Source: Callorhinchus milii (Eukaryota). From it: a DNA stretch of 64,000 nucleotides. The stretch's first letter is position 1. The number at the start of each line of letters is the position of its first letter. The DNA lies in the NCBI RefSeq assembly GCF_018977255.1, contig NW_024704771.1, positions 930,001 through 994,000 on the forward strand, given 5' to 3'. A program made the translations under genes and the position numbers. Below the pieces are notes generated by a model. The model saw only the letters and a program-made list of their open reading frames with translations, made no database searches and was not told where the DNA came from. Positions 1-62,458 of this stretch are shown one piece after another.

Positions 1-80
1 TAATTACACTAACAAAACACCCCGAGACATCGAACACAAACCATACACTGCAATCAACACACAACCAGTCAACCCCCTGT

Positions 81-411
81 CACTGTGTGAGGTTAGTGAC
101 TGAGCTCAGTCACTGTGTGAGGTTAGTGACAGAGCTCAGTCACTGTGTGAGGTTAGAAACTGAGCGCCGTCACTGTGTGAGGTTAGTGACTGAGCTCAGT
201 CACTGTGTGAGGTTAGAAACTGAGCGCCGTCACTGTGTGAGATTCGTGACTGAACTCAGTCACTGTGTGAGGGTAATAATTGAGCTCAGTCACTGTGAGA
301 TTAGTAACTGAGCTCAGTCACTGTGTGAGGTTAGTAACTGAGCTCAGTCACTGTGTGAGGTTAGCAACAGAGCTCAGTCACTGTGTGAGGTTAGTAACTG
401 AGCTCAGTCAC
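81..411. repeat. 30-bp minisatellite (CACTGTGTGAGGTTAGTGACTGAGCTCAGT)n, copy 1
   Basis: Tandem 28-30 bp units read directly; paralogous to the array at 41821-42455. Confidence 0.95.
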
Positions 412-1608: not shown

Positions 1609-1666
1609 ATGATGGAGAAGATTTTCATTCTGATTTTCCTGTTTGAGATTCCGGCTTCACTTTCTG
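1609..1666 (+). CDS. BTN-like copy 1 signal peptide exon ([19 protein letters not shown])
   Basis: tttcag acceptor at 1590, ATG at 1609, hydrophobic leader, phase-1 donor G|gtgagc. Confidence 0.85.
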
Positions 1667-4600: not shown

Positions 4601-7600
4601 CTTGGAGCAGCTGGTGTGTTGGTGTTCTTCTGCAGAAAACGATTGAAAAAAGTAAAAGGTAATAAATGATTTTAAGTTTCCCCCAAAATATAATCTTTAC
4701 TTTCATCCTTTATATAATCCATAACATAGTGAGGAGAGCACTGGCAACGTCTGAGCGCAGGTTACGAAAGCGAGAGTGAGTGTCTCTGGGGTGTTGGGTG
4801 TGAGGTAGGGGCGGAGGCGGGTGATGTGGTGGTGAATGAAGGTGGTTTTGATGAGGCACTGCATGTGAGTGAGAAAGGAAAGCCGGGGATCAAACCACAT
4901 GCCACGGTTGTCACTGAGAAAATTAGAGAGAGAGGCTGGGGAGCTTGTGGAGCTCAGAGCCAGAATGGGATGGCTTCAGTCTTATCTAAACAAACAAATT
5001 GAGATGGATCTTGAAGGAGGCATGAGAGGGGGTGAGGTGGGATGGAGTTCCAGAGAGTGGGGGCAGAGAAGCTGAAGGCTCGCCCACCAATGTTGGGGTG
5101 GGCAAAGCGGGGAACATGAAGCAGGCCGGAGGATGCTGAGTAGAGGGAGCGGAGAGGTTGGTAGGAGGTTAGGAGGTCACAGAGGTAGGGAGGAAAAAAG
5201 CCGAGGAGGTGAGGATCAGGAACTTGGAACTATATCATCTGAGTCATGTGGAGTCGGGCGATCATGAGGGTGATAGTGTCACGGTGTCTGGAGCAGAAGA
5301 GGACACAGGCTACAGAATTCTGGACAATCTGCAGCCTGTGGAAGGAGGAGTAGCGGAGGCCGACAAGCAGGGAGTTTGTGTAGTTGAGCCTGGATGTGAT
5401 GAACGCGTGGATGAGGGTCTCGAGAGAAGTGGCAGAGCCGGGCAATGTTGCGGAGGTGGGGAAAGGCGAAGCGGGTCATGGCAATGATATGGGGGATGAA
5501 GGTCTGTTAAGAGTTGAACAGGACACTGAGGTTCCGCATTGGCTCCATGATGTGTAGAGTGCAGCCATGAAGGGCAATGCTGTCAGCGACCGAGTTATGG
5601 AGACACTGACAAGAGCAATGCAGGACGGCCTTGGTCAACTGGAGAAAGTTAGCTCTCATCCAGGACTTGATGTCTGACAGACATTCTGTGAGGACAGCAG
5701 TGATCCTGGAGTCGAGGTGGAGGTGGAGTTGGGTGTCACCACATATATGTGGGAGTTGACTCCATGTCTATGGATGATGTCACCAAGAGGGATCTATACT
5801 GAGTTGGAGGAAATTTTGGCTCATCCAGGCCTTGATATCTCACAATCAACTGGACAGATCATCAGGGACCTGGGGTCGAGAGTAGATTTGGGGTCATCCA
5901 CATCCATGTGGGAATTAAGTCCATGTCTGTGGATGATGTTGAGGGACAGGGTGACTGTGTTGGCCAGTAGTGGGCAGAGGAAGGGCAATTGGGTGGTCAG
6001 CGGATGGGTGGGGAGGGAGTTGAGGGAGCAGGTGGTGAGCTTTATGTTATGAGAAGGAAGATGTGGTCAGGTGTATTTTGTTGATTTTTGTTGTTGAACG
6101 TGAAAGGTGCAATATAAATGTTATTTTGTTGTTATTATTCTCTATTGTCTCTCACACATATAGAGAAGTTGTGGGATAAAAGGCTGGAAATGTTAATCAG
6201 AATGTGTCTTGTCGTTTCCAAACTGTAGAAGGATTTGCTCACACAGAGGGATGTGAAGATGTAGAATTCTTTGCCCCAGAAATCTGTAGAGAAGGAATCA
6301 ATGTGAATGTTTAAATGAGAGACAGAGACTCGGATAGTAGAAATATTTGCGTAAAGAGCAGGAAATTGGTTTTAAAAGATTAAAATTGGTGGAACAGACT
6401 CATGGGCTGAATTGTCTCCTCCTGTTCCTCTTTTCCTTTACTAAAAGCTGATGTCAATTAGAAATAACCTAAAGCAGAGCCTTTAGTGCACTGTTATTTT
6501 CACTAATATTTAATAAAATATTGTATTAATATTTCTGCTGGATTGTGTCCATTATGTTTAAGGAAAATGTCCTACAGTTACTGATGGGGATGACACTGAC
6601 AATTGTGTTTTTATTTTCCAGTTTATGAAAATCTAAAAAAGGAATTTAAAAATCTGGGTAAGTAACAGCATTACAAACATCCCCGAGCCTCAGCCTCCCC
6701 GAGAGTCAGGTCCTCGGAGACCCACCACAAGCCCTTCCTGTGCTCACTGGTGACCTCAGCATTTACATATACACACACACCCAGACATATACACACACAC
6801 CCAGACATATACACACACACACCCAGACATATACACACACACCCAGACACAAGCACACATACACACACACATATGCACACAACACACATGCACACACACA
6901 CATGCACACAACACACATGCACACACACACACGCACACAGAATCACAGAACAACCTGAACTAAACCCACCTCCTGTGGAATAAAGAAACGTGACATTTCT
7001 GTGCAGATGAGGAGAATCTCACTGTGTTTGACTGTAGAGAGAAAGTGAAACTTACACTTTAACACAAATTAAATCATTCTGATACAATGAGTGAAATAAA
7101 TAACATAATGTAAACGAGTCTCTGAATGTGCATTCCACTCGGTTAGATTCTGTTCCTAAATATTTAACATTTACATCTGCGATCTGAAACAATAATTTAC
7201 ATTTATACAACTGCCTCCATGCGCCGGGTCAGAGTGAAAGGGGAGGTGACCGTACACACGGTTAAAGAGGAAGGTCTTCAGGTGCGATGAAGATGGTCAA
7301 AGTGGGGAGAGTGAGATGGAGGGATTGAGAAAGGGAGTTCTTTTGGTTTGGTGGTTAGTGGTTGAAGACATGGCCACCAATGGTGGGGCGGAGGCGAGTC
7401 AGGGATGAGCAGAAAGCCAGAGCCGCCCAAATAAAGGGGTGGGTAGAGGAGTGGGGTGTGAGCAGGTCGGAGAGGTAGGGAGGTGCTGGACATGAGGTGA
7501 TTTGTCAGTGAGTGTGAGGATCTTGAAATGGATCTGTTCAGTGATAGGGAGCCGTGGAGCCCGGCAAGGGCTGGAGTGATGGGGTATGGAGTTTGTTGTG

Positions 7601-40490: not shown

Positions 40491-41820
40491 ACTGGGCAGA
40501 GAAGAAGCACAAAGGCTGTGACAGGACAGCGGAGCCATCACCGCCCCTCACACAGACTGACACACACAGCGGGAACGGGAGGCAGTGGCTCCGGACACGG
40601 CTCTGGGCCTGAGAGCCGCGGTCTGACCACCTGCCACAGGCGGGAAGTGTGTGAAGGGACACAGTGGCCGCCACACACAGCGGGTCCTGGGGGTCACTGG
40701 TTTACCGCACACACCACACAAGTGCGGGAAGGGCGGACAGTGCTCGAGGAGCGAGTCCCGGCAGCTGCTGTCTTACCTCCCGCAGGAAGAGCTTCACACG
40801 AGGAGGAGGAGATGGCGTCGGTTATCTGTGGTGACGATCGGATGTCAATAGCGTTTGAAGTTGATTTGGGTTTGAGTTATAAAAGGAAATGCTGTTGAAC
40901 AGTGAACAGATAGAGAGACGGTGCGGACACGTTTACGCCACAGAATTCAATAGAATTCAATACAATATAAATAGTATAATTTAAGTGTATCGCTGAAGCT
41001 GAAAGAACAGTTGAAAGAGAAAGGAAACTGTTGTGAATCGGGACAAGAAAGTTGCACAAGAAAGTTTGTAAATGTATATTATTAAACAAACAAGAAATAT
41101 TTTAAAAAGAGTGGTTTGAGGTCCTCTGTCCGTCTGGAAACAAAACCCTTCGGCTCTGCTTTTGCCCATCTCTCCCCTCCCCACCCCCTCAGCTCCCATT
41201 CCCCCCTCAGGTGCCCATCAGCTCTGTGAAGCGCTTTGAGCCATCATCTCGACATGAGGCGCTGTGTCAATATAAACTGTACTGTCACATCCCAAACTGG
41301 TCTCAGTGACTGTGAGGCTGAGAGCAGCTGAACTCACGGACTTGTTTTAAACCAGAAATATATTTCTTTGTTGATAGAATATATATTTACACTTTCCTCA
41401 AAAAGAAACAAATGCCATAAGAGAATGAAGAAACACAACACGTTATTTTACCATTACGGGACGTGACAGCCCCGACCCCTTGTGGTGGGGGGTTGGGGGG
41501 GAGGGGCTGCCATTGCGCACTCCACTTTGGTGGAGGGACCAAGGCTCCCCCCCCCCCCCCCCCCCCCCCGGGGATCTGCTGCCCGTTGCGGGATGTGCTC
41601 ACATTTCTTGGGGGGAACGCTCCCATTAAGCACAGTCGGGAAACGCCCCGTGTGCACCACAGACATGTGTGACTGCACACACCCTGATAAGGGGCACTTC
41701 CATTTACAGATGTCACCCCAATGTGCACCGTAAACACATATAATTACACTAACAAAACACCCCGAGACATCGAACACAAACCATACACTGCAATAAACAC
41801 ACAACCAGTCAACCCCCTGT

Positions 41821-42455
41821 CACTGTGTGAGGTTAGTGACTGAGCTCAGTCACTGTGTGAGGTTAGTGACTGAGCTCAGTCACTGTGTGAGGTTAGTAAC
41901 TGAGCTCAGTCACTGTGTGAGGGTAGTGACTGAGCTCAGTCACTGTGTGAGGGTAGTAACTGAGCTCAGTCACTGTGTGAGGTTAGTGACTGAGCTCAGT
42001 CACTGTGTGAGATTAGTAACTGAGCTCAGTCACTGTGTGAGGTTAGTGACTGAGCTCAGTCACTGTGTGAGGTTAGTAACTGAGCTCAGTCACTGTGTGA
42101 GGTTAGTGACTGAGCTCAGTCACTGTGTGAAGTTGGTAACGGAGCTCAGTCACTGTGTGAGGTTAGTGACTGAGCTCAGTCACTGTGTGAGGTTAGTGAC
42201 TGAGCTCAGTCACTGTGTGAGGTTAGTGACTGAGCTCAGTCACTGTGTGAGGTTAGCGACTGAGCTCAGTCACTGTGTGAGGTTAGTGACTGAGCTCAGT
42301 CACTGTGTGAGGTTAGCGACTGAGCTCAGTCACTGTGTGAGGTTAGCGACTGAGCTCAGTCACTGTGAGGTTAGTGACTGAGCTCAGTCACTGTGTGAGG
42401 TTAGTAACTGAGCTCAGTCACTGTTTGAGAGTAGTAACTGAGCTCAGTCACTGTT
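41821..42455. repeat. 30-bp palindrome-containing minisatellite, copy 2 (18 regular units plus variants)
   Basis: Direct reading. Confidence 0.97.
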
Positions 42456-44465
42456 GAAGTTCGTAACTAGGTCTGTGCACTGATACACACAGTAACTCCA
42501 CTTTACAGTGAAATGCTATGAGATTCAACTCATGAGACATGAAATCTGTTATACCATATACAAAAGTTATTATTGTAATCATTATATTACCACCTGCACC
42601 AGTACAAAGGTGAGATAGTGTCTGACCCCAACCGGCAACACACCTTAATAAGCCGAGCTCTCATCATCCACACATCCCCACCCATCAGGGCATCTGGTCT
42701 GTGGGGAGGAAACAGGGACACTGACCCTGTTATATAACAGTATAATAATTATATATATTTTATAACAGATTATATTCTGTTTTTAATGGCCTTTAGTTTC
42801 CGACTCAATCTTGATCACACGGAGAAGGTCACAATGTTAAGATCTGCCCCCGTGTCCTCTCCCGCTCCAGGTTGTGTGAGTCTATCACCCCATCCCAGCT
42901 CAGCTCCATGAGCTCCCCATCCCCAGCTGATCAAGTTCCAGATCCTTGTTTCACCTTGAAAGCTCTCCTCGGTGTTGCCCTCCCAACCTCAGCAAACACC
43001 TCCAACCATACAGATCTGTTACACATTAACCTGGAAATCAATCACGTGGGACGTTTTCTGTGGATTGAAGATTATTCCAGGGAAACGTGAGGGTGTAACC
43101 AGGGTCTCAGAGCAGGAATGTTAGTTACTGACAGCAAGTGATGAGCAACAGTCAACACTAACAGTGAAAATCACAGGACTTTTCCCCACTCGATATTGTA
43201 GGGAATATTTGAACTGCGCTTTCCCTGTTTGTGTGGCTATAATGTGATTCCCACAGAAAACGAAAGCAGATTAGCCTCTGGACATCGCCATCCCGGACAC
43301 AGGTTTAATTTACTGTTTATAGTGAAGATTCTTCTCTTTCGATGCAAAACCTAAACAGGTCAGTGTCGGAAATTGTTTCCTGAAATGAACTATTATTTTA
43401 CCATTAAAATAACGCCTTAACTTTACTGCGATTCCAGTTACAGGATTCACTGGTTTCACTTTCACATGTGGTGATGTGGAGTTTAAATATGAAATAAATG
43501 TTCTCTATTGTCAGGTTTGTGTCAGTAGTAAAGCGGGAGCTCTGCAGTCAGTTTATTCCCAGTTTGTGGTTTAAACGCTGAGAATTGGAGGCAAGTGAGG
43601 AGGGAAGGGAATGGGAGCTCCTCTCTGACCTGCACCATGTTGGGGTGAATAAGGAGCGGCTGTGAGGAGGGGGAGGGGAGGGGCACATTACAGCAGTTAC
43701 ACATAACATGTTTCTTCCCCAGTCTGATTGCTGTCAGGTCACTGGTGTTTACAGTATTTCCTGTGAAGCGCTTTGAGACGTCCCTGGATGTAGAAGGTGC
43801 AGTGTCAGATGTCAGGATTATTATTCTCCGAGGTCACCTTGACAAGGGCTGAGGGTTGAAGCTCAGACAAACAGACGGAGACTGTGTGAGTTTGGAGCCT
43901 GAACCAGCAAAAGGTTCTACTGTATAGGGTTAAAAGCAAATCAGTGTCAGAAATTGTTTCCCGATATGAAAAGTTTATTGTGATTAAAAAATTCATTTTA
44001 TTTTTACTGTTATCCACTGACTTGGTTTAGCCGAAACAACAAGAACAACTTATATATCGCCCTCCACTCAGGGCAGCGTCTCAGAGCACTTAACAGTGGT
44101 GATGCCTGACTCCGAGCCTGAGTCAGAGGGTTGTGGGTTCAAGCCCCACATTAGGACTTTGAGCTCACAGTGTAGACTGACACTCCAGTGCGGTGATCGG
44201 GGAGCACAGCATTGTCGGAGGTGATGTCCTTTGGATGTGAGGTTAAGCTGAGGTGCTCTCTGCCTGTCCGGTGGATGTTAAAGATGCAAATTGCTGTTGT
44301 TGTTCCACCTGTTTCAGGCAATTACTTTATTCCCAAAGTTTGGAAGAACACTTTGTTCAAATGCTGATCTGGATTCTGACACAGATCTGATGTTATTGTG
44401 TGTTACTAATTTATTATGAATTGTCTGTTGATTTCCTCGTGTTTCAGTGCTCGATGTCCTGACAG

Positions 44466-44523
44466 ATGATGGAGAAGATTTTCATTGTGATTTTCCTGTT
44501 TGAGATTCCAGCTTCACTTTCCG
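44466..44523 (+). CDS. BTN-like copy 2 signal peptide exon
   Basis: [19 protein letters not shown]; G|gtgagc donor. Confidence 0.85.
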
Positions 44524-47500
44524 GTGAGCAACACTGTCATTTTCTGCTTAAGCGTCACTGTCACAATAATATTGCTATTCATTACAGAGGCAACTAAAAG
44601 ATTAGATCACTTATCAAAGTAGAGAATAGTTTTGTTTCTGATAAAGAAACCACTCACTGTAACTGGAAGCTGGAGCTTGTAATCACTGCAGCTAAACCTG
44701 CCCCAGGAAAGTGCTGTATCTGTCAGCTTCCCTCAGTCTATCAGCCCATAACTGTGGCTGAAAGGTCCTCACCAAACCTGGTCTATTCCCAGCTTCTCCT
44801 GATCACCTGTTCAGTGATGAACAACAGTGTCTCATTTCTGATAGAAATGACAATTCCCGACTGTGTTAATGAGCTGAACGAGAGGACATTCTGGCTGTTT
44901 ACACTGGAGCCGTATTTCAAACTATATTTGCAAAGGTTGTGAGCTGTCCGTGTTCACAGCACTGAACTCCGAGAGTAAATGTATCAGGTGAAGCTGAGAT
45001 GGGAAGATGGGAGGTGAGTATTCTGGGAAGATGAGGTCAAATGGGCTGAAGGACTTCCTTCATCTGAACCTCTCTTGTGATCGTGTGAAATGTGTCCACT
45101 GATGAGATTATAAACTGGTGATTTATATTCATCTTTTAAATGGTAACATTGCTGCACATTTCCAAATAAAGTATATTTCTGTAATAAGACAGTTTCTGTG
45201 CAGACTCAGGTCAGTTCATATCTCAGACTTTCAGGGCTTCAGGAAACCAGACACTGTAAAACTGTCAGTGACAGTGACACAAATAAACTATTGCAACTCA
45301 TAGTTTCACATTTAAATAGAAACAAATCATAATAATGGTTTAATAATTGATATTGTATTGTTCACTAGATTCTTTTATAGTTAATGGTCCACGTCAGCCT
45401 GTCCTCACAGCTCTGGGGAACGATGTCACTCTGGGATGTTGGTTAACACCAGGAGTGGCTGCAGATATGATGGTCGTGGAATGGAGTAAATCTGATTCTG
45501 GGGTTGTGGTGCATTTATACACACGTGGAGTGGATCGACTTGATCAGCAACATGAAGCCTACAGAGGAAGAACTGAGCTCATTAGAGACGGGATGACTCG
45601 AGGAAACTTGTCTCTCAGACTGAAGAACGTGAGGTGCTCAGACCAAGGAGAATACACATGTTCTGTGAGATCCACAACAGATTTTGGTGAAACAACAGTG
45701 GTTGTGAAAGTTGAAGGTTTGTTGTGTTTAACCTGTACATTTCCCTATTCTAAGCTCATGTTCCCACCCCGTCCCAGTCAATATATTTACCAACCTCAGA
45801 AATTCACCATAATCTCTACCAGAGCCCGGTGTGAACTGCACAATGTAATGATTTGTCATTCTGGCTCAATGTGGGCAATTGGCTGCCGCGTAACACCCAC
45901 AAAATACAGTCAATTCACTGTACAGTATATTCTGTGAAGGGCTTTGAGACATCTTGAAAATGTGATAAGGCTCTATATCAAGTGAAGGATTATTATTGTT
46001 CATTGGAAGGACTCTTGTTGTTTGGTTTAGAGGGTTGTGGGTTGAAGCCCCACATCAGCACCTGAGCTCATAGTTCAGGCTGATACCACACTCTGTCACT
46101 GAAGGACACTCAGTGTTAGAGGCTGACGTTTGGTGAGATGTGAAAATTGACAGTTTGCACCTCTTTGTTCAGGTGGACATTAATGATCCCATAAACTGAT
46201 GGAGAAGGTCGTGTCCTGCAGATTAATTGGCCATTCACTTGATGGTACAAATGACTATAACCTTAGCCTTCAAAAAGAGTCACGACATGTGAATGATTAG
46301 GTGTAAAGTACTGAATGTTTTGATTTGATCAGTTGTTACAAAAGTTCTGTCTTTGTAATTGTTGATAACACAGTGTATTATTGTTACAGACCGCAGACGG
46401 CTGCCCTTGATTTCCATGGCAGGTTACCAGGACTCGAGGCTTAAACTCACCTGTAAATCAAAAGGCTGGTATCCCGAACCTCGTGTAGTTTGGTTTGATA
46501 GGAGTGGAGCAAAGGTGAAAGCCAAGACTGAAACATGCACTCAGGGGTCTGAAGACTGTTGGAAATGTGAAAGTAGCATTGATATAACCAGAGATTCTAC
46601 AGACAGATTCACGTGTCTGACAGCAAACTTTCTGGAGGAAAGTGAGGCGAATATCCAGGTATCAGGTCAGTGAAACATTTGGAAAAATATAAACACTTCA
46701 ATGCAACGTATTACAGTTCATATTGTGATGTGGAACAATCCACAGCAGCTCCCAATGTTCAATCTGAGGCTTTCATTCTGATTTCCTTTCAGCCACTTTC
46801 ATCATAGGATAGTTTGCTATTGTAATTGCAAATAATTAATTACACAACAACAACAACAAGATTCCATTTGTATTGCGCCTTTCACGTTGGGAGGATGTCC
46901 CAAGGCGCTGGACAGTGTACAGCATTTCATGTATTTCTGAAATACATGAATTTGGTGTGTGTGGCTTTTCGCTGTTAGTGTTTCCAGTCAGCTGTGGAGT
47001 CCTGTAGCTCAGTGGTTAGAGCCTCACAAGCGAGAGACCTGGGTTTGATTGTCGGAGACGCTGTCCTTCAGATAAGACGTTCAGGTGGATTTTAAAGATC
47101 CTCTGCCACTTTTCATGAAGAGAAGGAAGTTTTCCAGGTATCCTGGCCAACAATCCTACAGATAAATTGGTCATTCACTACATAACTGTTTCTGGACATT
47201 GATAGGAATGATAGGATTATTATTACATATGACACAAAATTTCTTTGTGTTACAGAAGTGTTTTTCCACCGAGGCCCAGACTGGCTGGTGGCTTTCCTTG
47301 TGACGTTCACTCTTGTGCTTGGAGCAGCTGGTGTGTTGATGCTCTTCTGCAGAAAACGATTGAAAAAAGTAAAAGGTATTAAATGATTTTAAGTTTCCCC
47401 CAAAATATAATCTTTACTTTCATCCTTTATATAATCCATAACATATTAAGGAGAGCACTGGCAACGTCTGAGCACAGGTGACGAAAGCGAGAGTGAGTGT

Positions 47501-50500
47501 CTCTGATGTGTTGGGTGTGAGGTAGGGGCGGAGGCGGGTGATGTGGTGGGGGTGAATGAAGGCAGTTTTGATGAGGCACTGCAGTTGAGTGAGAAAGGAA
47601 AGCTGGGGATCAAAGCGCATGCCACGGTTGTCACTGAGAGAATTAGAGACAGGCTGGGGAAGCTTGAGGAGGTCAGAGCCAGAAGGGGATGGCTTCAGTC
47701 TTATCTAAACAAACAAATTGAGATGGATCTTGAAGGAGGCATGAGAAGGGGTGAGGTGGGATGGAGTTCCAGAGGGTGGGGGGAGAGAGGCTGAAGGCTC
47801 GCCCACCAATGTTGGGGTGGGCAAAGCGGGGAACATGAAGCAGGCCGGAGGATGCTGAGTAGAGGGAGCGACAGGTTGGTAGGAGGTTAGGAGGTCACAG
47901 AGGTAGGGAGGAGAAAAGCCGAGGAGGTGAGGATCAGGAACTTGGAACTATATCATCTGAGTCATGTGGAGTCGGGCAATCAGGAGGGTGATAGTGTCAC
48001 GGTGTCTGGAGCAGAAGAGGACACAGGCTACAGATTTCTGGATAATCTGCAGCCTGTGGAAGGAGGAGTTGGGGAGGCCGACAAGCAGGGAGTTTGTGTA
48101 GTTGAGCCTGGATGTGATGAACGCATGGATGAGGGTCTCGAGAGAAGTGGCAGAGCCGGGCAATGTTGCGGAGGTGGGGAAAGGCGAAGCGGGTCATGGC
48201 AACGATATGGGGGATGAAGGTCTGTTAAGAGTTGAACAGGACACTGAGGTTCCGCATTGGCTCCATGATGTGTAGAGTGCAGCCATGAAGGGCGATGTCA
48301 GTGCCCGGGTTATGGAGGCACTGACAGGAGCAATGCAGGACGGCCTTGGTCAACTGGAGAAAGTTAGCTCTCATCCAGGACTTGATGTCTGACAGACATT
48401 CTGTGAGGACAGCAGTGATCCTGGAGTCGAGGTGGAGGTGGAGTTGGGTGTCACCACATATATGTGGGAGTTGACTCCATGTCTATGGATGATGTCACCA
48501 AGAGGGATCTATACTGAGTTGGAGGAAATTTTGTCTCGTCCAGGCCTTGATATCTCACAATCAACTGGACAGATCATCAGGGACCTGGGGTCGAGAGTAG
48601 ATTTGGGGTCATCCACATCCATGTGGGAATTAAGTCCATGTCTGTGGATGATGTTGAGGGACAGAGTGACTGTGTTGGCCAGTATGGGGGCAATTGGGTG
48701 ATCAGGAGATGGGTGGGGAGGGAGCTGAGTGAGCAGGTGGTGAGCTTTATGTTATGAGAAGGAAGATGTGGTCAGGTGTATTTCGTTGATTTTTGTTGTT
48801 GAACGTGAAAGGCGCAATATAAATGTCATTTTGTTATTATTATTCTCTATTGTCTCTCACACATAAAGAGAAGTTGTGGGATAAAAGGCTGGAAATGTTA
48901 ATCAGAATGTGTCTTGTCGTTTCCAAACTGCAGAAGGATTTGCTCACACAGAGGGATGTGAAGATGTCGAATTCTTTGCCCCAGAAATCTGTAGAGAAGG
49001 AATCAATTTGAATATTTAAATGAGAGACAGAGACTTGGAAAGTGGAAATATTTGGTGAAGAGCAGGGAATTGGATTTAAAAGATTAAAATTGGTGGAAGA
49101 GGCTCATGGGCTGAATTGTCTTCTCCTGTTCCTCTTTTCCTTTACTAAAAGCTGATGTCAATTAGAAGTTACCTAAAGCAGAGCCTTTAGTGCACTGTTA
49201 TTTTCACTAATATTTAATAAAATATTGTATTAACATTTCTGCTGGATTGTTTCTGTTACATTTAAGGGAAACGTCCAACAGTTACTGATGGGGACGACAC
49301 TGACGATTGTGTTTTTATTTTCCAGTTTATGAAAATCTAAAAAAGGGATTTAAAAATCTGGGTAAGTAACAACATTACAAACATCCCCGAGCCTCAGCCT
49401 CCCCGAGAGTCAGGTCCTCGGAGACCTACCACAAGCCCTTCCTGTGCTCTCTGGTGACCTCAGCATTTATATACATAACACAACCAGACACATGCACACA
49501 CACCCAGACACATGCGCACACAAACACACACATGCACACCCAGACACATGCACACCCAGACACATGCACACACACACAGACACATGCACACACAAACACA
49601 CCCAGACACATGCACACCCAGACACATGCGCACACAAACACACACATGCACACACACACAGACACATGCACACACACGAATGTGCACACACACAAAAAGA
49701 GTCACAGAACAACCTGAACTAAACCCACCTCCTGTGGAGTGAAGAAATGTGTGATGATTCTGTGCAGATTAGGAGAATTTCATTGTGTTTTGACTGTAGA
49801 GAGAAAGTGAAACTTACACTTTAACACAAATTAAATCATTCTGATACAATGAGTGATTTAAAAAACATGGGATTCAGGGATGAGCAGGAAGCCAGAGACG
49901 GCCAAATGAAGGGGTGGGTAGAGGAGTGGGGTGTGAGCAGGTCGGAGAGTTAGGGAGGTGCTGGACATGAGGTGATTTGTCAGTGAGTGTGAGGATCTTG
50001 AAATGGATCTGTTCAGTGATAGGGAGCCGGTGGAGCCCGGCAAGGGCTGGAGTGACGGGGTTTGGAGTTTGTTGTGGGTAATGTACCAAATGTTAAGGAT
50101 TATTAATATTATCATTATTCACTTATTGAGATTGTAAATGTTTAATCAGTTTTGTCAGTTTCTACAGTGCAAAAAATCCCCATTCTTAATGTGAATTACA
50201 ATACAAATTGTGAAATAACAATAGATAAGGAAGAAAATCTTATATTTTTGATTTGTTTACTGATTTAATTTCCTTCATTTGATGTGAGCACGTATCCTCC
50301 TATCACAGTGAGTTTGGAAAGTTTGAGCTTAAAGGAAAATAAAGAAACTGAATAAAATAAACCAGATAAGTTTGTTAACTTTTTTTCAAAAATTTAAAAT
50401 TACATTTTCTAAAACCTTTTCTTTTGTTTTAAAGATAATGAACTGAAATCTGCCAAACAAGGTACAGTACATTGTGTTATTGGCACTAAGTGTTTATGAT

Positions 50501-53500: not shown

Positions 53501-56500
53501 GAATCCACAGTTATGCAGGTAAGACATTAATATAGTATAAATGACACAATTCAGAACTGCTCAGATCCCACCCCAGATTTAGCACAAAGATGTACAGACA
53601 GAAGGTCCCAGCCTGGTCTGTGCTGAGGTATCTGATCTCAGTCGGGGAGGGAGGGGCTCTACACATGGCCTCAGGGCCCGGATATGGATAGACAATAAGC
53701 CAAAGTCACTGTGCCTCATCACATTCAGGGATTCCTCCCCCACTCCCATCCCAGGCTTTCTGTAAATACCGGGTGAGGAGAGGATCAGGCTGTGAGGCCC
53801 TCAATGGTTGAATAGCCAACCAACACTGGCTGTCTAGACTCTCACATGAACAAGTCACTTGAGAGAGCTACAGACTAGAACCAGACACAGTGAGTGTGAG
53901 CACTGAGCCCGACTCCTGCTCATCGCCCTCTGCACGGTCACTAAAGCTGTGATGCCATGTTGAGGTTGTAGAGATGCCAGTCCAATCCTGTGCCTCAGGC
54001 GCTGGGCACAACAGCTGTTAGTGTGTGGCTGGAGAATGGTATGTGACTGTACCTGGGGAAGGTACTGATAGACCAAGTGCTACATACACTGGTATTGTAT
54101 TTACTACATTACTTGGTGTCATCCACACTGTCATCTGTCGTAAAATACTGACTTTATATTGTGTGAAGGAATCTGATTACTGACCAATAGCAGTCAGTTG
54201 TCATGACTGGACGCTCCTGTGATGTTCTCGTTTGAGTTCCTCTTGACTCAGGACATCAGTGTGTTTCAACTAACGATGACCACATTATGGTGACATGGTG
54301 TTTGCCCACAGCAAACTCTGATCTTGTTGTCTGATCAGCAGCCCATATATTTATATATAACTGACCCCCCCTCCCCCCGATCAATCAACCTGTCCACTCA
54401 GTTTCAAGATCTAAATTAGTCCACATCGCTTCTCCCAGAGGGACACCGCACCCAAATCACACCCAGACCTCATCTACGCCATACACAGATCAAACCCAGA
54501 CCTCACCTACACCAAATCTATACCACCCAAACCACAACTACACCACACCCAGACCTCATACAGACCACACAGGGCACACAGCTGTTGGATAATTTTCCGT
54601 TTCTACCTTCTTTGTATACTTCTGCAATTGGATGTTAGTTCATTCAAGCAATAAACACAGTCACACAGTTCAATCACTAAGAGTACATTTATTCAAATAA
54701 CTCAGGACCAGTCAGTTCAGTCTGGTACAGAGTTAGGGTCGTAGCTTCACCAAGCTGACGACCCCGTTGTAGGATTTAACAATGGCATTTATACAAGTAT
54801 GGGGAGGATCCTTCTCCTCCAATCGTTAGATTTGGTCATAGGTGACAATGTGGTCGAGACATAGGATGTGTATTGGGCAACTATCCATTGTCTCATACTC
54901 CAAGGCTGCGGTTAGTCTGCGCATATATCTGTTGATTCAGGTTTACTTCCTTCATGGAACCAGTCTGCGCATACATCTGTTGATTCGGGCTTACTTCCTT
55001 CATGGAATCAGTCGTAACTGGTTCCATGCAGTTGAGCTGCACGTTTCTAAGATCAGATAACACAGTCTGCCAAGCTTCTCATTGCAGGGTTTACTAAAGG
55101 TTATAATTTGTGCCTTTTTATCCATCATTCCCTCCTTTTATAATCTTTATTAACATTGCCATGTGCCGGTACAGTCCCCAATTTATTTTCTCGGATGCCT
55201 CTTGTTGCCTTGTGACAATTTAAAGATGCATCGTCATAGATGGGATCAATTGTACCTTGCTTTCATGGGTCAGAATAATAATCCTTCATATCATCATCGT
55301 CTGACAGATTATCGTCTGACACCACCTCCATCGTAAGTGATGGTGTTACCCCCACACACTTAGTGACGCACACTTTAATAAGGTGAATAAGGACACAAAT
55401 CCCCAGTAATAATACCAGTAACACAACCCCTGCTTTAAGAACCCAGGCTCTCCATCCTTCAAATAAGGACGCCCACCAATTAGATATTCCACTTGGTTCC
55501 TGTAAGCTTTTTCTGACATGTCTGGGACACCAACCCATCCTAGAGATATCCTGTAACTGCATGTGCTATTTCCCACCTCTGTTCCCTTCCCCTCCTTAAT
55601 AAAGCAAATCTGGCCTGGTATATTGCTCACCTTAAACCCTGGCGATATCTTATCATGGTCAAACCTTCGCACATACCTTGTACTGTTCTGTTTTTCACAT
55701 GATAGTGTCTCATTTCCCCAGAGCCCACTTATGTTGAAAGTGACTCCTGCTTGGAGTCCTAACACAGTTTCTGCTTTTGTCAGCGGAATCGCATAGAGGA
55801 GAAAACCAGTCTGTGAACTATGGGGTATTTGGGTGCACACCCAACACCCTGTCACATTTGACGCCTTTACTGCCTTATGTGCAGCTAAGAGATATGTATT
55901 CCTCCCCAGACGTGTTACCAGTCCAAACCATAGTCCAAAACTGAGAATCCGTAGCCATGCCATCTTGCTAGTTGCTCCTTACAGTGGTGATGTCTTCTTG
56001 CAGTGGCTAACGTGGACCCAGGTGTTTCGTTCTGCAATCCGTACTGCTGTTGGTGTGGTTAGTAGCACCTGATATGGTCCTGTCCACTTTGGTTGATGCC
56101 AATGCTTCCTTTTGATGTCTTTAATCAGTGTCCAATCTCCTGGCTGCAGTGGGCATGGCTCGGTGTTCTCATTCAGTTCCTGGGGAGGTAATACATTTCT
56201 CATAGTCATTTTATTCTGAAACATTTTTTTCATGTATCCTGCAAGTCCGGCCTCCTCCAATTCTGTACGTTCTCCCAGCTGAGGCATATAATATGCTCTA
56301 CCCATAACAATTTCATACGGGGAGAGTTTTTTGCTCCCAGGTGTAATTCTCATACTTGTCAGTGCTAACGGTAGACATGCCACCCAACCCTTCCCTGTGG
56401 TTTCCATGGCTTTCTTCAGCTTATTTTTAAGTGTCCCGTTATGTCTTTCTACCATTCCTGCAGACTCTGGATGGTAGGCACAGTGGTTCTTTAAGGTTAT

Positions 56501-59500
56501 CCCCAAGTGGATCCCCACATTTCTTAGGACCTCATTCTTAAATTCCGGCCCATTATCACTGTATAATATTCGCGGGATACCCCATCTTGGTATTATTTCT
56601 CTGCATAATATCTTTGCCACTGTTACTGCATCCACATGGGTGGTGGGGAAAGCTTCTACCCAACCCGAGAAAGGACATACCATTACTAGGCAATATTTCT
56701 TTCCTTCGCATACGTTCAGATGGATGAAATCCATCATCCAATGAGAGAAGGGTTCTTTTGCCAATGGAATCTTGCCTTGTTTACATTTTAGTTGTCCTTG
56801 TGGGTTATTGCGTAAACATGTTATACATTGTTGACAAAATTTTTGTAAATAAGTGGTTAGTCCGAATGTCGTATATTGTTGGTCTATCATTGTCCTCATC
56901 CCTCCTTTTGAGACATGGCATTTGCCATGGCTCAATCCTGCTGCAATGGGAAACAATGATCGTGGTAAAACTGGCAGTCCAGTGTTTCCAACCCATATGC
57001 CGAATGTGTTTAGTTTGCATCCCATGTTTTTCCATCCTCGCTTCTCAAGGGTGCCTGCCTCTGATTGCATTGCTTTAATCAATGCCATGTCAATCGAGGG
57101 TGGTGTTTGTGACACTAATACTTCTGCGAGGGGCACTGCCTGGGCAGTTTTATCTGCAAAGGCATTTCCCTTTGACACCAGGTCCTTCGCAGAAGTGTGG
57201 GCAACACACTTAAGTATCGCTAATTGTTTTGGGAGTTGTAATGCATCAATTAGGTTCAATATTAAATCAGCATGGCAAATTGGTTTCCCTGTGGAGGTAA
57301 CCATACCCCGATTTCGCCACTGTCCAGCAAATATGTGGCAAGTGGAATGGGCATATTGTGAGTCTGTATAGATATTAACAACTTTTCCCTTCCCCAGTAC
57401 GCAAGCTCGGGTAAGCGCCACAAGTTCAGCCATTTGTGCCGAATATCCTGCTGGGAGTCTGGCTGCTTCTATTACTGTGTCCTGAGTGCATACAGCGTAA
57501 CTGCTTTGGGAACGGCCCCCCGTATCCTTTTTGCATGAACCGTCCACAAAGTATGTCACATCTGCATTCTCAAACCTTGTATCCGCCAAATCCACTCGCG
57601 CCGCCACTGACTGTGAGGTTTCTTCCAAACAGTCATGCGGGCTACCCTCGGAGGGTACCGGCAGCAAGGTTGCCGGATTCAATACTGTACATCGTTCAAT
57701 GGTTACATTTGGGCAGGTTAGCAATGTGGCCATACAGGACAGCTGGCGTGCTGGCGATAGGAAAGCGTGTTTAGTTTGGAGCAATAATACCGAGACTGCA
57801 TGCGGCACCAACAACTTCAATGGTTGGTATAGGACCAGGGGCAATGATGCGCGAACAGCCAGGGCTGCTGCTTCCACTGCTTGTAAGCAGCAAGGAAGGC
57901 CTCGAGCCACCGGATCCAGTCGGTGTGAGTAGTAAGCCACGGGCCTCATCCGTGTTCCAAATGGTTGTAATAGGACAGATGCCATAAACCCATTTTTAAC
58001 GCAAACAGTTTGAGTATATGGCCTTGCAGGGTCAGGATGCGCCAGGGTCTCTGCCCCAGATAAAATGGTTTTTATAATTTCAAATGCCTTTATAGCCTCT
58101 GGATTCCATTCAATTGCATCCTGTGCCTTCATAGGGGCATCATAAATCAGCCCTAACAAGGGCTGAGTTAGCTCCGCATATGAAGAGATCCATGCACGGC
58201 AGAAGTTAGTCATTCCTAAAAATGACATCATCTGTTGTTTAGTTTCGGGTCGCGGAGCTTGCATTATTGCAAGCTTTCTGTCTTTTAATAAGGATTTTCC
58301 TTCCCTAGAAATTGCATGGCCCAGATATTTGACCTCGGGTAAACAATATTGCAACTTTTTTCGGCTCACTTTATGTCCCCATTCTCCCAAAAATTTTAAG
58401 CAGGCCAGAGAATCTTGGCGGCAAATTTCGTTGGATGGGGAACATATAAGTATGTCATCTACATACAACAAAACTTGACTGCCACCCGGGGGCTCAAATT
58501 TTGCCAGATTACTTTCCATACATTGTGAGAATATGGCCGGGGATTCAACAAATCCCTGTGGACATCTGGTGTACGTATATTTCCTTCCCAAAAATGTGAA
58601 GGCAAACCAAAATTGGGAGGCCTTGTCAACCGGAATAGAAAAAAACGCATTTGCTAAATCAATTACTGTAAACCAAGCTGTATCAGGTCGCAAATTGTTC
58701 AGCAAGGTATTGGGGTCGGGTACAACTGGGGTCCGGGGAATCACTGCCTTATTTACAGCCTGTAAATCCTGAACCAATCGCCACCCTTGTGATGGCGCTA
58801 CCTTTTTTACTGGGAACAGGGGGGTGTTACATGGAGAGTCAGGGCAATCCACTATGATGCCCTTCTCCTTAAGTTCCTTAATTATGGGTTCAATTCCTTC
58901 AATGGCCTCTGGTTTCATAGGATACTGCCGTTGGTATGGGCGGTGTGTTCCTTTTGGTATGATTTTAATAGGTTCAATCCCTTTTATTAGTCCTACGTCA
59001 GCTGATCCTTTGGACCATAGAGCATCAGGCAGAGCATTCAACTCCGCCTCCTGTTCTATTTCCACTCCTAACAGTCAGGGAACCATCTTCCCTGAGTGCA
59101 TCTTCCTAACTCTTTCACATTGATACACCCAATTCAAACATTGTGAGTAGAGACCTGTCCTCGGGGAATACCATATCCCTGCATCCTGAGTCTCTTCCCA
59201 ATCCTGTGCTTTTATCCCACAATCTACCAGGTTACCCACTTGTTGCCATGACTTTTTGCATCTCTTTGCAATTGATACATGGGGGTTCCCTTCTCCCTGG
59301 TATAGCTGATCATCTAACGGTTGGAGTAAAACTTTCCCTCCCATATCAGTTGCATTCCAATATATACATTGAATCGTTAATCGTGTGGAACTTCCCAATT
59401 TGAAATGTCTCTCATATGGCAACGAACTTCCCCCTTTTTCACGGTACCACATGGTACAGTGCAGATCCTCAGGCAGGTGGAAGTCACTTTGTTCCATGAC

Positions 59501-62458
59501 CCGCTGGTGTGCCAATCTAAGCAGTTCCTGTTGGAATTGTCCTGGCCCTTCCTTTAACTGTAGGGCATAATAGTATTGTGGTTCCCCCCTTTCTTGGATA
59601 ATTAGGGTATCTTCAATTTTTTTTTTGTACGTAACCTTAACTGCTTCCCATCGGTCGTCACCCATAGGTATCACTCCTAACTTGAGTTTAGTTAACACAT
59701 CTCTCCCTAGTAAATTAACCGGGCATGTCATTGATATAACCACTTGTGCTTCTACAGTCTCTTTATTCTTGTAACAGAATTCAAGAGGTTCCGTGACGCA
59801 TTGTGTTTCTAAGTCTCCGGACGCTGACCGAATATCAATTTTTTCCTGACTCTTTTTATAAGGAAAAGTTGCGTCTCTCATCGTAATAACCGTTCTACAT
59901 GCTCCTGAATCGCATAAAAACGGTATGTCAATTCCATTCACTCTTAATGTCAACCAAGCACTCCCAGGAGACTGTATTAACGCCAATATACGTTCAGTCT
60001 CCTCTCTCTCCTCCTCTCCTTCTTCTTCGGGCTTTTGGGACTTCCACCGGTTTGGACAATCCCTTGCCCAGTGTCCCATTTTCCCACAAACATAACATTC
60101 TCCCCCATTATTGTTCTTTTGCTTCCTCTTTCTATTCTGCCATGGTTGTTTATTAACTTCTTGTGATATAAATCCCTCATTATGCCTATTATTCCTCTTC
60201 TCTTCCCTTGTTATTCGTTCAAAATGGATGGCATGATCTAATACTGGCTGGAGTGCCCCTGTACTCCATGTTATTAGATGTTGTTTTACCAATTTTGAAA
60301 TATGGGGCACCATTCCCGCCAGAAATGCATTCTTAATTTGTTGTGCCCAAACTCCAGTATCATCATGTGGATGTGGTGGTTCGATTCCACTATTGGAATT
60401 AAACACCTTGCGCAATCGCGTATAGTATTGCATACACGTTTCGTCTTTTCCCTGAATACAATCCGTTATCGCCGAATAGTTACATCTGGCTCTATAAAAT
60501 GTAACTATTCTCCCCATTAATTGGTCGAAGGGTCCCCAATAATCATGCTGGGAGCGGTTTGCTGCTACCGGTGGACGGTCATACATTCTTGGTGCTCCCT
60601 CATTGTCTAATGCTGTCCAATCTCCCCCGACCTGACACCATTCCTGACGCAACACCTCTCTTATGCACTGCTCGGTTTCTAAACTATTTAGCCTGTAACT
60701 TGCCATGGTTTGATACATAAAATCTCGAAATTCGGTTCCCCCTTGATTGGGATGGGGACAGGCGATCATTGCCCTCTTAACATCCTCCATTCCCCATGCC
60801 CTATACACGTACTGGGTGTTCCCCTGTCCGTCTGCCACTTGTATCATTGGGAAATTCCCTGCTGTTCCTACATTTACCTGCATAGGTGGGTTTGAAGGGG
60901 AGCTCGGGAGTGCGGATTTGTTTTGATAATTATCATGGAGCCATCTGACATATGGGTCAGCATTGTTTGGCGTCCTCGGATTATATGCTCGGTTTAAAGG
61001 TGCCGTGGGCTGTTCTGACCCATACGCTGGTGGAGCACCATGCCCATTTTCCGGGCGTTGAGAGGCTGGAGTCTCTAAATCCTCCTTCCCTGTGTAAGCC
61101 AATAGTTTTGTTTTGGTTTCTGTCAATTCACCCAGCCGTCGATATTCCGTGGCTTTCATATGCCATACTTGTGCTTCCCCATAATGATATTTCAATTGTT
61201 TTTTCTTATCATCTCCACTTTTCTCTTTTATTTTATTCAATAATTCTTGTGTACTCTCAGGTTTTAATCGCCCATCAAATCCAAATTTACGTTTCCACAT
61301 TGTTTCCCAATCACCACTTCCTTCTACTACCTTATTCATAACCTTCGCATTTCGACTCACTAATTCTCGGGTTTCTTTCTTACAACAACTGCTGCGACAG
61401 TCCCCTTTACTGCCTACACACCCCATTCTTGCAGAATTTAAAATGATCTCGTCACTTACCCTTTCCTAGGTGAGTCAGTCTCGACCTCTACGTACCAGCC
61501 TCTAGATCCTCTTCGATCCCTGGTGTCCGATTCCTCCGGACCTGACTATACTCACCCGAAGGCGTAAGATATTGAGATCCCGGACGAGCCCCCAATGTTG
61601 GATAATTTTCCGTTTCTACCTTCTTTGTATACTTCTGCAATTGGATGTTAGTTCATTCAAGCAATAAACACAGTCACACAGTTCAATCACTAAGAGTACA
61701 TTTATTCAACTAACTCAGGACCAGTCAGTTCAGTCTGGTACAGAGTTAGGGTCGTAGCTTCACCAAGCTGACGACCCCGTTGTAGGATTCAACAATGGCA
61801 TTTATACAAGTATGGGGAGGATCCTTCTCCTCCAATCGTTAGATTTGGTCATAGGTGACAATGTGGTCGAGACATAGGATGTGTATTGGGCAACTATCCA
61901 TTGTCTCATACTCCAAGGCTGCGGTTAGTCTGCGCATATATCTGTTGATTCGGGTTTACTTCCTTCATGGAACCAGTCTGCGCATACATCTGTTGATTCG
62001 GGCTTACTTCCTTCATGGAATCAGTCGTAACTCGTTCCATGCAGTTGAGCTGCACGTTTCTAAGATCAGATAACACAGTCTGCCAAGCTTCTCATTGCAG
62101 GGTTTACTAAAGGTTATAATTTGTGCCTTTTTATCCATCAACAGCTACATGTCTTAATGATAACAGCTGACAACATTCTGCTTTCTTACAGGTTACGAGG
62201 AGGTTCTCACAGAATTAGGTAAGGTATTTGGGTCAGTTTGATAAAGAGCCATTCTGTCACTCCCCTTTCCCCGAATAAATGTTAAAATATATTAATGGGG
62301 AGCGGGAGCGAGGAGGGGAATATAAAGCAGTTTGGGGAACAGAGAAAATGTGACTGGCAAAACCGTATAAAACCATCCTCATCAAATAAATCTATACCAA
62401 CTGAACTTCCTTTATTTTACAGAAAAGACCCAATTTGGGTTGTACAGAAGTTATGCAG
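44466..62458 (+). CDS. Butyrophilin-like gene copy 2 (spliced; open through all visible exons; 3' end probably beyond the window)
   Basis: SP, IgV, IgC, TM and eight phase-1 mini-exons join without stops. Confidence 0.85.
45369..45716 (+). CDS. BTN-like copy 2 IgV exon
   Basis: 348 nt, IgV motifs, canonical splice sites. Confidence 0.95.
46390..46665 (+). CDS. BTN-like copy 2 IgC exon
   Basis: 276 nt, [10 protein letters not shown] motif. Confidence 0.95.
47256..47375 (+). CDS. BTN-like copy 2 TM exon
   Basis: [40 protein letters not shown]. Confidence 0.92.
47445..48735 (-). mobile_element. Degenerate L2 fragments (paralog of 4725-6050)
   Basis: Colinear and highly similar to copy 1. Confidence 0.85.
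49326..49361 (+). CDS. BTN-like copy 2 36-nt mini-exon ([12 protein letters not shown])
   Basis: ttccag acceptor and G|gtaagt donor. Confidence 0.85.
50435..50461 (+). CDS. BTN-like copy 2 27-nt mini-exon (DNELKSAKQ)
   Basis: AG/GT boundaries, open. Confidence 0.75.
50640..50666 (+). CDS. BTN-like copy 2 27-nt mini-exon (DLKYMKKTL)
   Basis: ctttag acceptor and G|gtaagt donor. Confidence 0.78.
51230..51256 (+). CDS. BTN-like copy 2 27-nt mini-exon (ELKKQFTKS)
   Basis: tttcag acceptor and G|gtactt donor. Confidence 0.75.
51665..51960 (-). mobile_element. tRNA(Ala)-derived SINE, present only in copy 2
   Basis: Reverse-complement head ggagtcctgtagctcagtggttggagcactccccttgcaagcgag; absent near 9560. 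Confidence 0.82.
52161..52187 (+). CDS. BTN-like copy 2 27-nt mini-exon (EWQVVGSCK)
   Basis: ctccag acceptor and T|gtaagt donor. Confidence 0.72.
52197..52688. repeat. 25-bp minisatellite, uninterrupted in copy 2
   Basis: Same unit as 9683-12815, without the L2. Confidence 0.95.
53030..53382 (-). mobile_element. tRNA-derived SINE
   Basis: Reverse-complement head gagtcctgtagctcagtggttagagcactcgcc. Confidence 0.8.
53492..53518 (+). CDS. BTN-like copy 2 27-nt mini-exon (FKARIHSYA)
   Basis: tttccag acceptor and G|gtaaga donor. Confidence 0.75.
54583..55127 (-). repeat. 3' LTR (545 bp)
   Basis: TG..CA ends with imperfect 10-bp IR (TGTTGGATAA / TTATCCATCA); minus-strand TATAAA (~54790) and AATAAA (~54690). 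Confidence 0.97.
55128..55140 (-). promoter_or_regulatory. Polypurine tract (AAAAGGAGGGAA)
   Basis: Abuts the 3' LTR on the minus strand. Confidence 0.92.
55263..55963 (-). pseudogene. env: Internally deleted env: signal peptide and SU N-terminus (ORF 55963-55346) joined out of frame to the TM C-terminus (to 55263)
   Basis: [16 protein letters not shown] leader, CWVC motif and N-glycosylation sequons; second frame gives [34 protein letters not shown] (membrane anchor). No furin site, fusion peptide, ISD or CX6CC seen. Confidence 0.9.
55979..59074 (-). CDS. pol: Pol (RT - RNase H - integrase), uninterrupted, in frame with the upstream ORF after a single TGA
   Basis: RT ([22 protein letters not shown]), RNase H (FVDGS, AELVAL, YTDS), IN ([24 protein letters not shown]). 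Confidence 0.96.
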   Translation of the reverse strand: MLGVEIEQEAELNALPDALWSKGSADVGLIKGIEPIKIIPKGTHRPYQRQYPMKPEAIEGIEPIIKELKEKGIIVDCPDSPCNTPLFPVKKVAPSQGWRLVQDLQAVNKAVIPRTPVVPDPNTLLNNLRPDTAWFTVIDLANAFFSIPVDKASQFWFAFTFLGRKYTYTRCPQGFVESPAIFSQCMESNLAKFEPPGGSQVLLYVDDILICSPSNEICRQDSLACLKFLGEWGHKVSRKKLQYCLPEVKYLGHAISREGKSLLKDRKLAIMQAPRPETKQQMMSFLGMTNFCRAWISSYAELTQPLLGLIYDAPMKAQDAIEWNPEAIKAFEIIKTILSGAETLAHPDPARPYTQTVCVKNGFMASVLLQPFGTRMRPVAYYSHRLDPVARGLPCCLQAVEAAALAVRASLPLVLYQPLKLLVPHAVSVLLLQTKHAFLSPARQLSCMATLLTCPNVTIERCTVLNPATLLPVPSEGSPHDCLEETSQSVAARVDLADTRFENADVTYFVDGSCKKDTGGRSQSSYAVCTQDTVIEAARLPAGYSAQMAELVALTRACVLGKGKVVNIYTDSQYAHSTCHIFAGQWRNRGMVTSTGKPICHADLILNLIDALQLPKQLAILKCVAHTSAKDLVSKGNAFADKTAQAVPLAEVLVSQTPPSIDMALIKAMQSEAGTLEKRGWKNMGCKLNTFGIWVGNTGLPVLPRSLFPIAAGLSHGKCHVSKGGMRTMIDQQYTTFGLTTYLQKFCQQCITCLRNNPQGQLKCKQGKIPLAKEPFSHWMMDFIHLNVCEGKKYCLVMVCPFSGWVEAFPTTHVDAVTVAKILCREIIPRWGIPRILYSDNGPEFKNEVLRNVGIHLGITLKNHCAYHPESAGMVERHNGTLKNKLKKAMETTGKGWVACLPLALTSMRITPGSKKLSPYEIVMGRAYYMPQLGERTELEEAGLAGYMKKMFQNKMTMRNVLPPQELNENTEPCPLQPGDWTLIKDIKRKHWHQPKWTGPYQVLLTTPTAVRIAERNTWVHVSHCKKTSPL
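59075..61426 (-). CDS. gag-pro: Gag-Pro-2H polyprotein, 783 aa (myristoylation Gly2, CA, single CCHC knuckle, aspartic protease, 2H-phosphoesterase-like domain)
   Basis: MGCVGS N-terminus; [14 protein letters not shown] (60056-60097); FLCDSGA (59903-59911) and NLLGRDVL; HCT (59459-59461) and HVS (59279-59281). Confidence 0.95.
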   Translation of the reverse strand: MGCVGSKGDCRSSCCKKETRELVSRNAKVMNKVVEGSGDWETMWKRKFGFDGRLKPESTQELLNKIKEKSGDDKKKQLKYHYGEAQVWHMKATEYRRLGELTETKTKLLAYTGKEDLETPASQRPENGHGAPPAYGSEQPTAPLNRAYNPRTPNNADPYVRWLHDNYQNKSALPSSPSNPPMQVNVGTAGNFPMIQVADGQGNTQYVYRAWGMEDVKRAMIACPHPNQGGTEFRDFMYQTMASYRLNSLETEQCIREVLRQEWCQVGGDWTALDNEGAPRMYDRPPVAANRSQHDYWGPFDQLMGRIVTFYRARCNYSAITDCIQGKDETCMQYYTRLRKVFNSNSGIEPPHPHDDTGVWAQQIKNAFLAGMVPHISKLVKQHLITWSTGALQPVLDHAIHFERITREEKRNNRHNEGFISQEVNKQPWQNRKRKQKNNNGGECYVCGKMGHWARDCPNRWKSQKPEEEGEEEREETERILALIQSPGSAWLTLRVNGIDIPFLCDSGACRTVITMRDATFPYKKSQEKIDIRSASGDLETQCVTEPLEFCYKNKETVEAQVVISMTCPVNLLGRDVLTKLKLGVIPMGDDRWEAVKVTYKKKIEDTLIIQERGEPQYYYALQLKEGPGQFQQELLRLAHQRVMEQSDFHLPEDLHCTMWYREKGGSSLPYERHFKLGSSTRLTIQCIYWNATDMGGKVLLQPLDDQLYQGEGNPHVSIAKRCKKSWQQVGNLVDCGIKAQDWEETQDAGIWYSPRTGLYSQCLNWVYQCERVRKMHSGKMVP
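61577..61594 (-). promoter_or_regulatory. Primer-binding site for tRNA-Pro (TGGGGGCTCGTCCGGGAT)
   Basis: 18-nt canonical tRNA-Pro PBS, 1 nt downstream of the 5' LTR. Confidence 0.95.
61596..62140 (-). repeat. 5' LTR (545 bp)
   Basis: Same length as the 3' LTR; 4 substitutions seen by eye. Confidence 0.97.
62192..62218 (+). CDS. BTN-like copy 2 27-nt mini-exon after the ERV (GYEEVLTEL)
   Basis: ctttcttacag acceptor and G|gtaagg donor; phase 1, open. Confidence 0.7.
   Translation, partial: VTRRFSQN
62423..62458 (+). CDS. BTN-like copy 2 36-nt mini-exon ([12 protein letters not shown])
   Basis: ttttacag acceptor and GCAG|gtaaga donor; 3' end and following intron resemble 53492-53560. Confidence 0.68.

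Follow-up and report, generated by a model that had tools for sequence, protein, structure and literature searches.

A provirus in the genome of Callorhinchus milii raises the question of how a retrovirus might express its reverse transcriptase (RT) when an in-frame stop codon stands directly before it. The window analysed (64,000 nucleotides, positions 930,001 to 994,000 of contig NW_024704771.1) carries this provirus on its minus strand. The original prediction held that Gag, protease (PR) and a 2H enzyme share one open reading frame, and that a single leaky TGA, relocated from its usual place between nucleocapsid (NC) and PR, separates it from RT, RNase H and integrase (IN). In gamma- and epsilonretroviruses the readthrough stop is placed between NC and PR, and it is UGA in SSSV, ZFERV and RMERV, epsilonretroviral readthrough being described as unverified (PMC13517186). 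Three placements of PR are listed in PMC12789967: within Gag (RSV), within Pol (MLV, HIV) and apart from both, by means of two frameshifts (MMTV, HTLV). The best explanation, to which a probability of about 0.7 was assigned, is that the element belongs to a clade of fish class I retroviruses with two in-frame UGA stops, gag/pro-2H/pol, likely passed by double readthrough, and that the first stop has probably been lost recently in the window.

Structure of the provirus and its 2H domain

The provirus is young, spans positions 54583-62140 and is flanked by a 5-bp target-site duplication. Its LTRs, of 545 bp each, differ at 4/545 positions. The primer-binding site is presumably of the tRNA-Pro type. 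From the 5' end of the element, the following features were located.

61596..62140, minus strand: 5' LTR, 545 bp, compared with the 3' LTR
61577..61594, minus strand: primer-binding site
60020..61426, minus strand: gag, 469 codons, 57% identical to the outside Gag P0307, with the same end point
60100-60050, minus strand: CCHC knuckle in gag
60017..60019, minus strand: NC/PR codon, candidate first (gag/pro) stop site, GGA in the window
59966..60003, minus strand: predicted stem-loop 14 nt past the NC/PR codon, with a purine-rich spacer between, z -3.2
59675..59953, minus strand: retroviral aspartic protease with CDSGA (Pfam RVP, 1e-13; XMRV PR, Z 14.1)
59096..59602, minus strand: CNPase-like 2H phosphoesterase domain, as modelled (HCT at 59461-59453, HVS at 59281-59273)
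59075..59077, minus strand: TGA between 2H and RT, the second stop, followed by CUG
59017..59059, minus strand: predicted stem-loop past the second stop, family-specific, holding the originally proposed 9-pair hairpin
55982..59074, minus strand: pol (RT, RNase H, IN), 1031 codons in the gag-pro frame, first in-frame AUG at codon 53
55349..55978, minus strand: truncated env-like frame, 210 codons from stop to stop
54583..55127, minus strand: 3' LTR

The predicted arrangement of a single Gag-Pro-2H frame, then TGA-C, then pol in frame was confirmed, with 783 and 1031 codons on the two sides of the stop. The minus-strand frame is stop-free from 61465 to 59078 and, from the ATG at 61426, encodes Gag-NC-PR-2H, with a zf-CCHC match at aa 443-459 and a retroviral protease at aa 492-584. 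The context of the stop reads CCC TGA CTG TTA. At the other end of pol (55981-55963), a TAA is followed five codons on by an AUG; pol and env lie in one frame and are parted only by a single stop, as they are in L077, L095 and L097, so that gag, pro, pol and env are all in one frame. The env of the window copy carries an internal deletion. What we take to be a gamma-type env TM immunosuppressive motif was seen by eye in the translations of two sibling copies, L012 and L014, and is deleted in the window. Elsewhere in the window, positions 1-6300 and 41700-49000 form a duplicated segment of 96-98% identity, about 42.8 kb apart, that contains a 30-bp minisatellite, and other tandem arrays have units of 25, 24 and 12/15/27 bp.

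The segment from PR to the stop gave no match in Pfam, and the 2H part gave none in a PDB sequence search. Modelled from the single sequence, it reached a pLDDT of 34 and was unusable; modelled with 52 relatives, it reached 91. The latter model matched mouse CNPase (2xmi) with a Z of 15.6 and an rmsd of 3.6 over 162 aligned residues, and Foldseek returned an E-value of 6e-7. Over 53 rows, the motif residues were retained in 50 (H174), 48 (T176), 51 (H234) and 47 (S236). The 2H label thus holds by the model, the CNPase match and motif conservation, the segment being modelled as a CNPase-like 2H phosphoesterase fold with both HxT/HxS motifs. A CNPase-like domain is known in fish epsilon-like ERVs (Basta 2009, via the review PMC4977317).

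Conservation of the stop before RT

In the same genome, TGA CUG was found at this stop in 10/10 copies of the provirus family (family 1) that reach the junction; an eleventh match ends short of it and was left out. Sequencing-run contigs crossed the stop without change in 4/4 runs from two studies, one of these runs possibly being the window's own source. The sequencing error that had been envisaged as a refutation was therefore not borne out. In pol, an excess of synonymous change was seen between family-1 subtypes (e.g. 73 vs 29).

A second family of nine loci in this genome is 43-47% identical to family 1 over the 2H half, and TGA CUA stands at the same codon in 7/7 copies retaining the junction, the other two lacking the region. 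Within the 29 codons past the stop, 15 residues are common to the two families and 14/15 are differently encoded, and conservation at the coding level sets in directly past the second stop. Synonymous change is thus near-saturated around the junction, and the second stop with its CU survived it. Judged by the two families and by relatives in other hosts, the TGA before RT is conserved throughout the lineage and is no chance nonsense codon, as had been argued. PR is absent in 9/9 family-2 loci, so the NC/PR junction cannot be read there. Six of them (L066-L071; G000 C2, C3, C5 and C8) have a common deletion that fuses the early part of gag with the latter half of 2H, so that gag is mostly gone and PR entirely; these copies are likely non-autonomous elements mobilised in trans. 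A distant ERV of the same genome, L072 (G000 C1:65.27-65.28 Mb), has one stop after gag and then an unbroken PR-2H-RT.

With RT as query, 186 proteins were returned, and the analysis used the 120 that were listed. Among these, the closest matches start within a few residues of the window junction and more distant ones extend upstream through 2H and PR. In a 128-row FastTree of RT, one branch of 32 rows (SH 96) contained all 16 junction-starting rows (11 proteins and 5 DNA loci), together with 15 later-starting rows and a single longer row, in whose additional residues PR/2H gave no match. Among the 96 rows outside it, 79 reach at least 100 residues upstream, 14 reach less and 3 start late. The clade was supported at 100/99 in an IQ-TREE analysis of 34 rows hand-picked from the FastTree. 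It was placed among fish class I-like ERVs, in a tree that holds no class II/III outgroup and does not resolve the backbone to L094 and L092/L093. The hosts of the named members are medaka, Poecilia, Takifugu, Syngnathus and Oreochromis; in the proteins of these members a stop is suggested by where the gene call starts.

The complementary search with NC-PR-2H gave 652 matches, and the best 150 were listed: 36 lacked PR/2H, 28 were too short and 86 reached the end of 2H. Of these listed 86, 69 terminate there, 61 of them no more than 10 residues from one point, while 11 continue into RT and 6 carry other tails. A PR-2H profile was built from 52 of the listed matches plus the window sequence, and an upstream CCHC was present in 0/53 closed PR-2H proteins having the PR N-terminus. 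The NC-PR-2H part gave no homologue in a word-indexed database, and single-sequence locus scans found no loci. Two public gene models, P0193 and P0178, were considered as natural Gag-PR fusions and rejected. Both couple Gag to PR by jumping across the junction, which hides the stops in protein databases.

DNA of relatives was obtained from a metagenome scan that returned 19 loci, the best 12 of which were examined. L074, L075 and L076 read gag-TGA CUA G-pro-2H (323 codons)-TGA-pol, all in frame. In L073 the order is gag-TGA CUA G-pro (165 codons)-TGA CAA-pol, and 2H is lacking (its pro frame, at L073:835-1329, ends without the domain), so the second stop is independent of the presence of 2H. 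The second-stop hexamers of L073-L076 are UGACAA, UGAGAG and UGAGAC; the first stops are all UGACUAG. A single stop after gag with continuous pro-pol was found in L077/L078, L080/L081, L072 and the reference-type contigs L094 and L095; L079 and L082-L084 were too decayed or short to read. L097 and L098 are retroviral contigs within a bacterial metagenome-assembled genome, where they are probably host contamination.

All four related DNA loci with the second stop also have a stop after NC. The TGA before RT is therefore not a relocated stop but the second of two. Both branches of the clade hold two-stop loci (L073; L075/L076), and two in-frame stops are thus likely its ancestral state. Outside the C. 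milii genome the layout was read as DNA in four loci of three elements only; in the remaining proteins it would follow from gene-call ends, the PR-2H matches not being tied singly to the RT clade.

The hexamer at the second stop is UGACUG in the window, one base off the UGACUA of family 2. UGA-CUA is a leaky class, and UGACUAG allows basal readthrough of at least about 1.3% (PMC13517186). Type II readthrough sites carry UGACUA or UGACGG, and for UGACUA a downstream stem-loop is needed only conditionally. Over the lineages, positions +4 to +6 vary (CUG, CUA, CAA, GAG, GAC). The hairpin proposed downstream is present: its 9-pair stem at 59049-59027, with two G-U pairs, extends to about 59059-59017 (-21.6 kcal/mol, z -3.4; 1/200 shuffles equally stable). 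The windows at the two stop sites had the lowest two z-scores of 270, a ranking made noisy by the use of 25 shuffles each, but similar windows are not rare in the element (23/270 overlapping 60-nt windows at z <= -2.5). The stem-loop is absent in family 2, L073 and L075 (z +0.35, -0.19 and -1.2), and as a clade-wide signal it was rejected. Rfam gave no match within 58800-60300. With contexts that vary and a strong stem only in family 1, no single signal is conserved. Readthrough past the second stop, as originally proposed, appears the most likely way to Pol, though neither one context nor one structure marks it.

This variability would also suit a different route, in which the stops are real and conserved but readthrough plays no part: Pol would be translated from an RNA spliced past the second stop, in the manner of Ogre retrotransposons, or would be initiated separately or by re-initiation, as in foamy viruses. 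We consider this unlikely. Ogre elements offer a precedent in that GAG-PROT stands apart from RT-RH-INT, but theirs is an intron of about 274 bp (PMC6317226). The window has an acceptor-like stretch at the junction, rather pyrimidine-rich and ending in AG at +7, yet the position and phase of the AG vary by lineage, and in L073, L075 and L076 purines predominate upstream. The interruption is a single codon, which in every case is UGA and in frame; with no non-coding spacer and no common acceptor position, it argues against an Ogre-like intron. No joints were found in the contigs of four runs, two of them presumed RNA, which is weak evidence from contigs only. As to initiation, L075 has an AUG at codon 2 of pol, Met stands directly past the junction in medaka and Poecilia proteins, and P0009 and P0012 start with it there. 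The first in-frame AUG, however, is codon 53 in the window, 30 in family 2, 101 in L073 and 30 in L076, and the conserved RT N-terminal W..G..DVG precedes it in 4/5 lineages, which argues against AUG initiation.

The junction between NC and PR

Codon 470 (60019-60017) is GGA in 8/11 family-1 copies, including the window, and TGA in 3/11 (L012, L013 and L021). The TGA occurs on two contigs and in both gag subtypes, in the context TGA GAG, vs TGA CUA G in relatives. It is known from the assembly alone: L012 and L013 lie in one array, L012 has numerous 1-bp gaps, and run contigs covering the codon, which drop minor alleles, were all GGA. L014, otherwise near L012, carries GGA. The three copies L012-L014 (G000 C29) are 5'-truncated, lie 15-18 kb apart with a common upstream flank and are mosaics of two subtypes; two of them retain a longer, frameshifted env including the TM motif.

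Among outside proteins, the closest Gag (P0307, 57%) terminates within 3 residues of the NC/PR codon, and the closest PR-2H (P0145, 61%) begins just past it and finishes at the second stop. The open NC-PR junction of the original prediction stands for 8/11 copies and fails for 3/11 and for the four related loci, so that a refuting condition given with the prediction, other copies with a stop after NC, is borne out in these. In the 8/11, PR and 2H are in frame with Gag by sequence, in what looks like a recent allele. GGA at this codon is probably derived, marking a recent loss of the first stop, if the direction of change is read from these relatives.

The original prediction would reverse that direction: an autonomous lineage with protease in Gag and one leaky stop as its norm, the TGA at NC/PR being a secondary nonsense codon. 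The GGA form has integrated on at least six separate occasions, and these copies are young: their LTRs differ at 0-4 positions, and in 5/6 the 5-bp flanks match. Together with GGA in all run contigs that cover the codon, and with a second stop that is set in a UGA-CU context and has a stem, this speaks for such a lineage. The outside proteins that stop at or begin after the codon speak against it, as do the occurrence of TGA on two contigs and in two subtypes, the stem-loop downstream of the NC/PR codon, and the fact that no natural Gag-PR-2H fusion was found in other hosts among the matches listed. Defective genomes have, moreover, likely spread in the same host, as family 2 illustrates, so the spread of the GGA form is no proof of function in cis. 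We regard this reading as improbable, slightly more so than splicing or initiation. A weaker form, in which GGA is derived yet functional, is compatible with the two-stop explanation too. The Gag-Pro-2H allele of the window may replicate alone or may have been mobilised in trans.

That the second stop is a chance nonsense mutation or a sequencing error in a decaying provirus is very improbable and was refuted: most sibling copies do have private frameshifts or stops elsewhere, but this stop keeps one codon position across both divergent families and also in the DNA of relatives from other hosts, run contigs agree with the assembly, and pol shows the synonymous excess noted above.

Proposed double readthrough and known retroviral systems

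With double readthrough at two in-frame stops, the majority of ribosomes would terminate after Gag, some would pass the first stop to give Gag-Pro-2H, and fewer would pass the second as well to give Gag-Pro-2H-Pol. Protease and 2H would thus be dosed apart from RT/IN, comparable to the double frameshifting of beta- and deltaretroviruses. An allele that lacks the first stop, such as that of the window, would yield Gag, PR and 2H in a 1:1 ratio. Two leaky steps in series could leave very little Pol.

The element resembles gamma- and epsilonretroviruses (MoMLV, WDSV) in that one frame holds gag, pro and pol and is interrupted by an in-frame stop, which is UGA in relatives from aquatic hosts; unlike here, their one stop is at NC/PR and PR-RT is continuous, with no extra stop between pro(-2H) and RT (PMC13517186). 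The window RT is 45% identical to the reference-type contig L094, which is of WDSV length. The family copies and L073-L076 differ from an epsilonretrovirus-like class I ERV by the break between pro and RT. With beta- and deltaretroviruses (MMTV, MPMV, HTLV-1) the element would share three nested products (Gag and Gag-Pro as well as Gag-Pro-Pol), as deduced here from sequence, and an accessory nucleotide enzyme in the pro frame, theirs a dUTPase and here 2H; theirs, however, is a system of two -1 frameshifts, whereas one frame is parted here by UGA codons and the RT is class I-like (PMC12789967). As in those viruses, pro stands apart from gag and pol in L073-L076, in three family copies and in 53 PR-2H-only proteins. 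Alpharetroviruses (RSV/ASLV) likewise have PR in the gag frame, as in 8/11 copies here, but enter pol by a -1 frameshift rather than past a stop in the same frame (PMC12789967), and the Gag-Pro fusion described here is polymorphic in the family and absent from relatives.

A deposited sequence, CmiERV 'scaffold 2324' (Han 2015, PMC4422223), contains the family-1 second junction with TGA CUG but starts just past the NC/PR codon; gene layout and stops are not discussed there. No retrovirus with two in-frame stops was found in the literature searched, whose scope excluded Repbase and the primary papers on the CNPase-ERV (Basta 2009), ZFERV, SSSV and RMERV. The enzyme-expression routes given in the reviews, as far as these cover them, are readthrough of one stop, one or two frameshifts and a spliced pol, to which two in-frame stops would add another.

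The finding is probably a retroviral recoding variant by double readthrough, conserved and wider than first held. In its broader form, which we hold with somewhat less confidence than the two-stop explanation itself but still favour, a widespread retrovirus clade of cartilaginous and teleost fish would use two successive UGA readthroughs, a scheme absent from current ones and convergent on beta/delta double frameshifting. Protease and a CNPase-like enzyme would thereby be raised over RT/IN, and in one env-deleted sublineage PR-2H would further have been fused to Gag. Two stops would explain why such elements seem broken or why gene callers splice them wrongly. The second junction could serve as a marker of the clade, which offers natural UGA contexts by the dozen for studies of readthrough in fish, and the polymorphic first stop provides a natural comparison of protease dosage. 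The layout itself suggests selection for separate dosage of the protease and the putative 2H enzyme.
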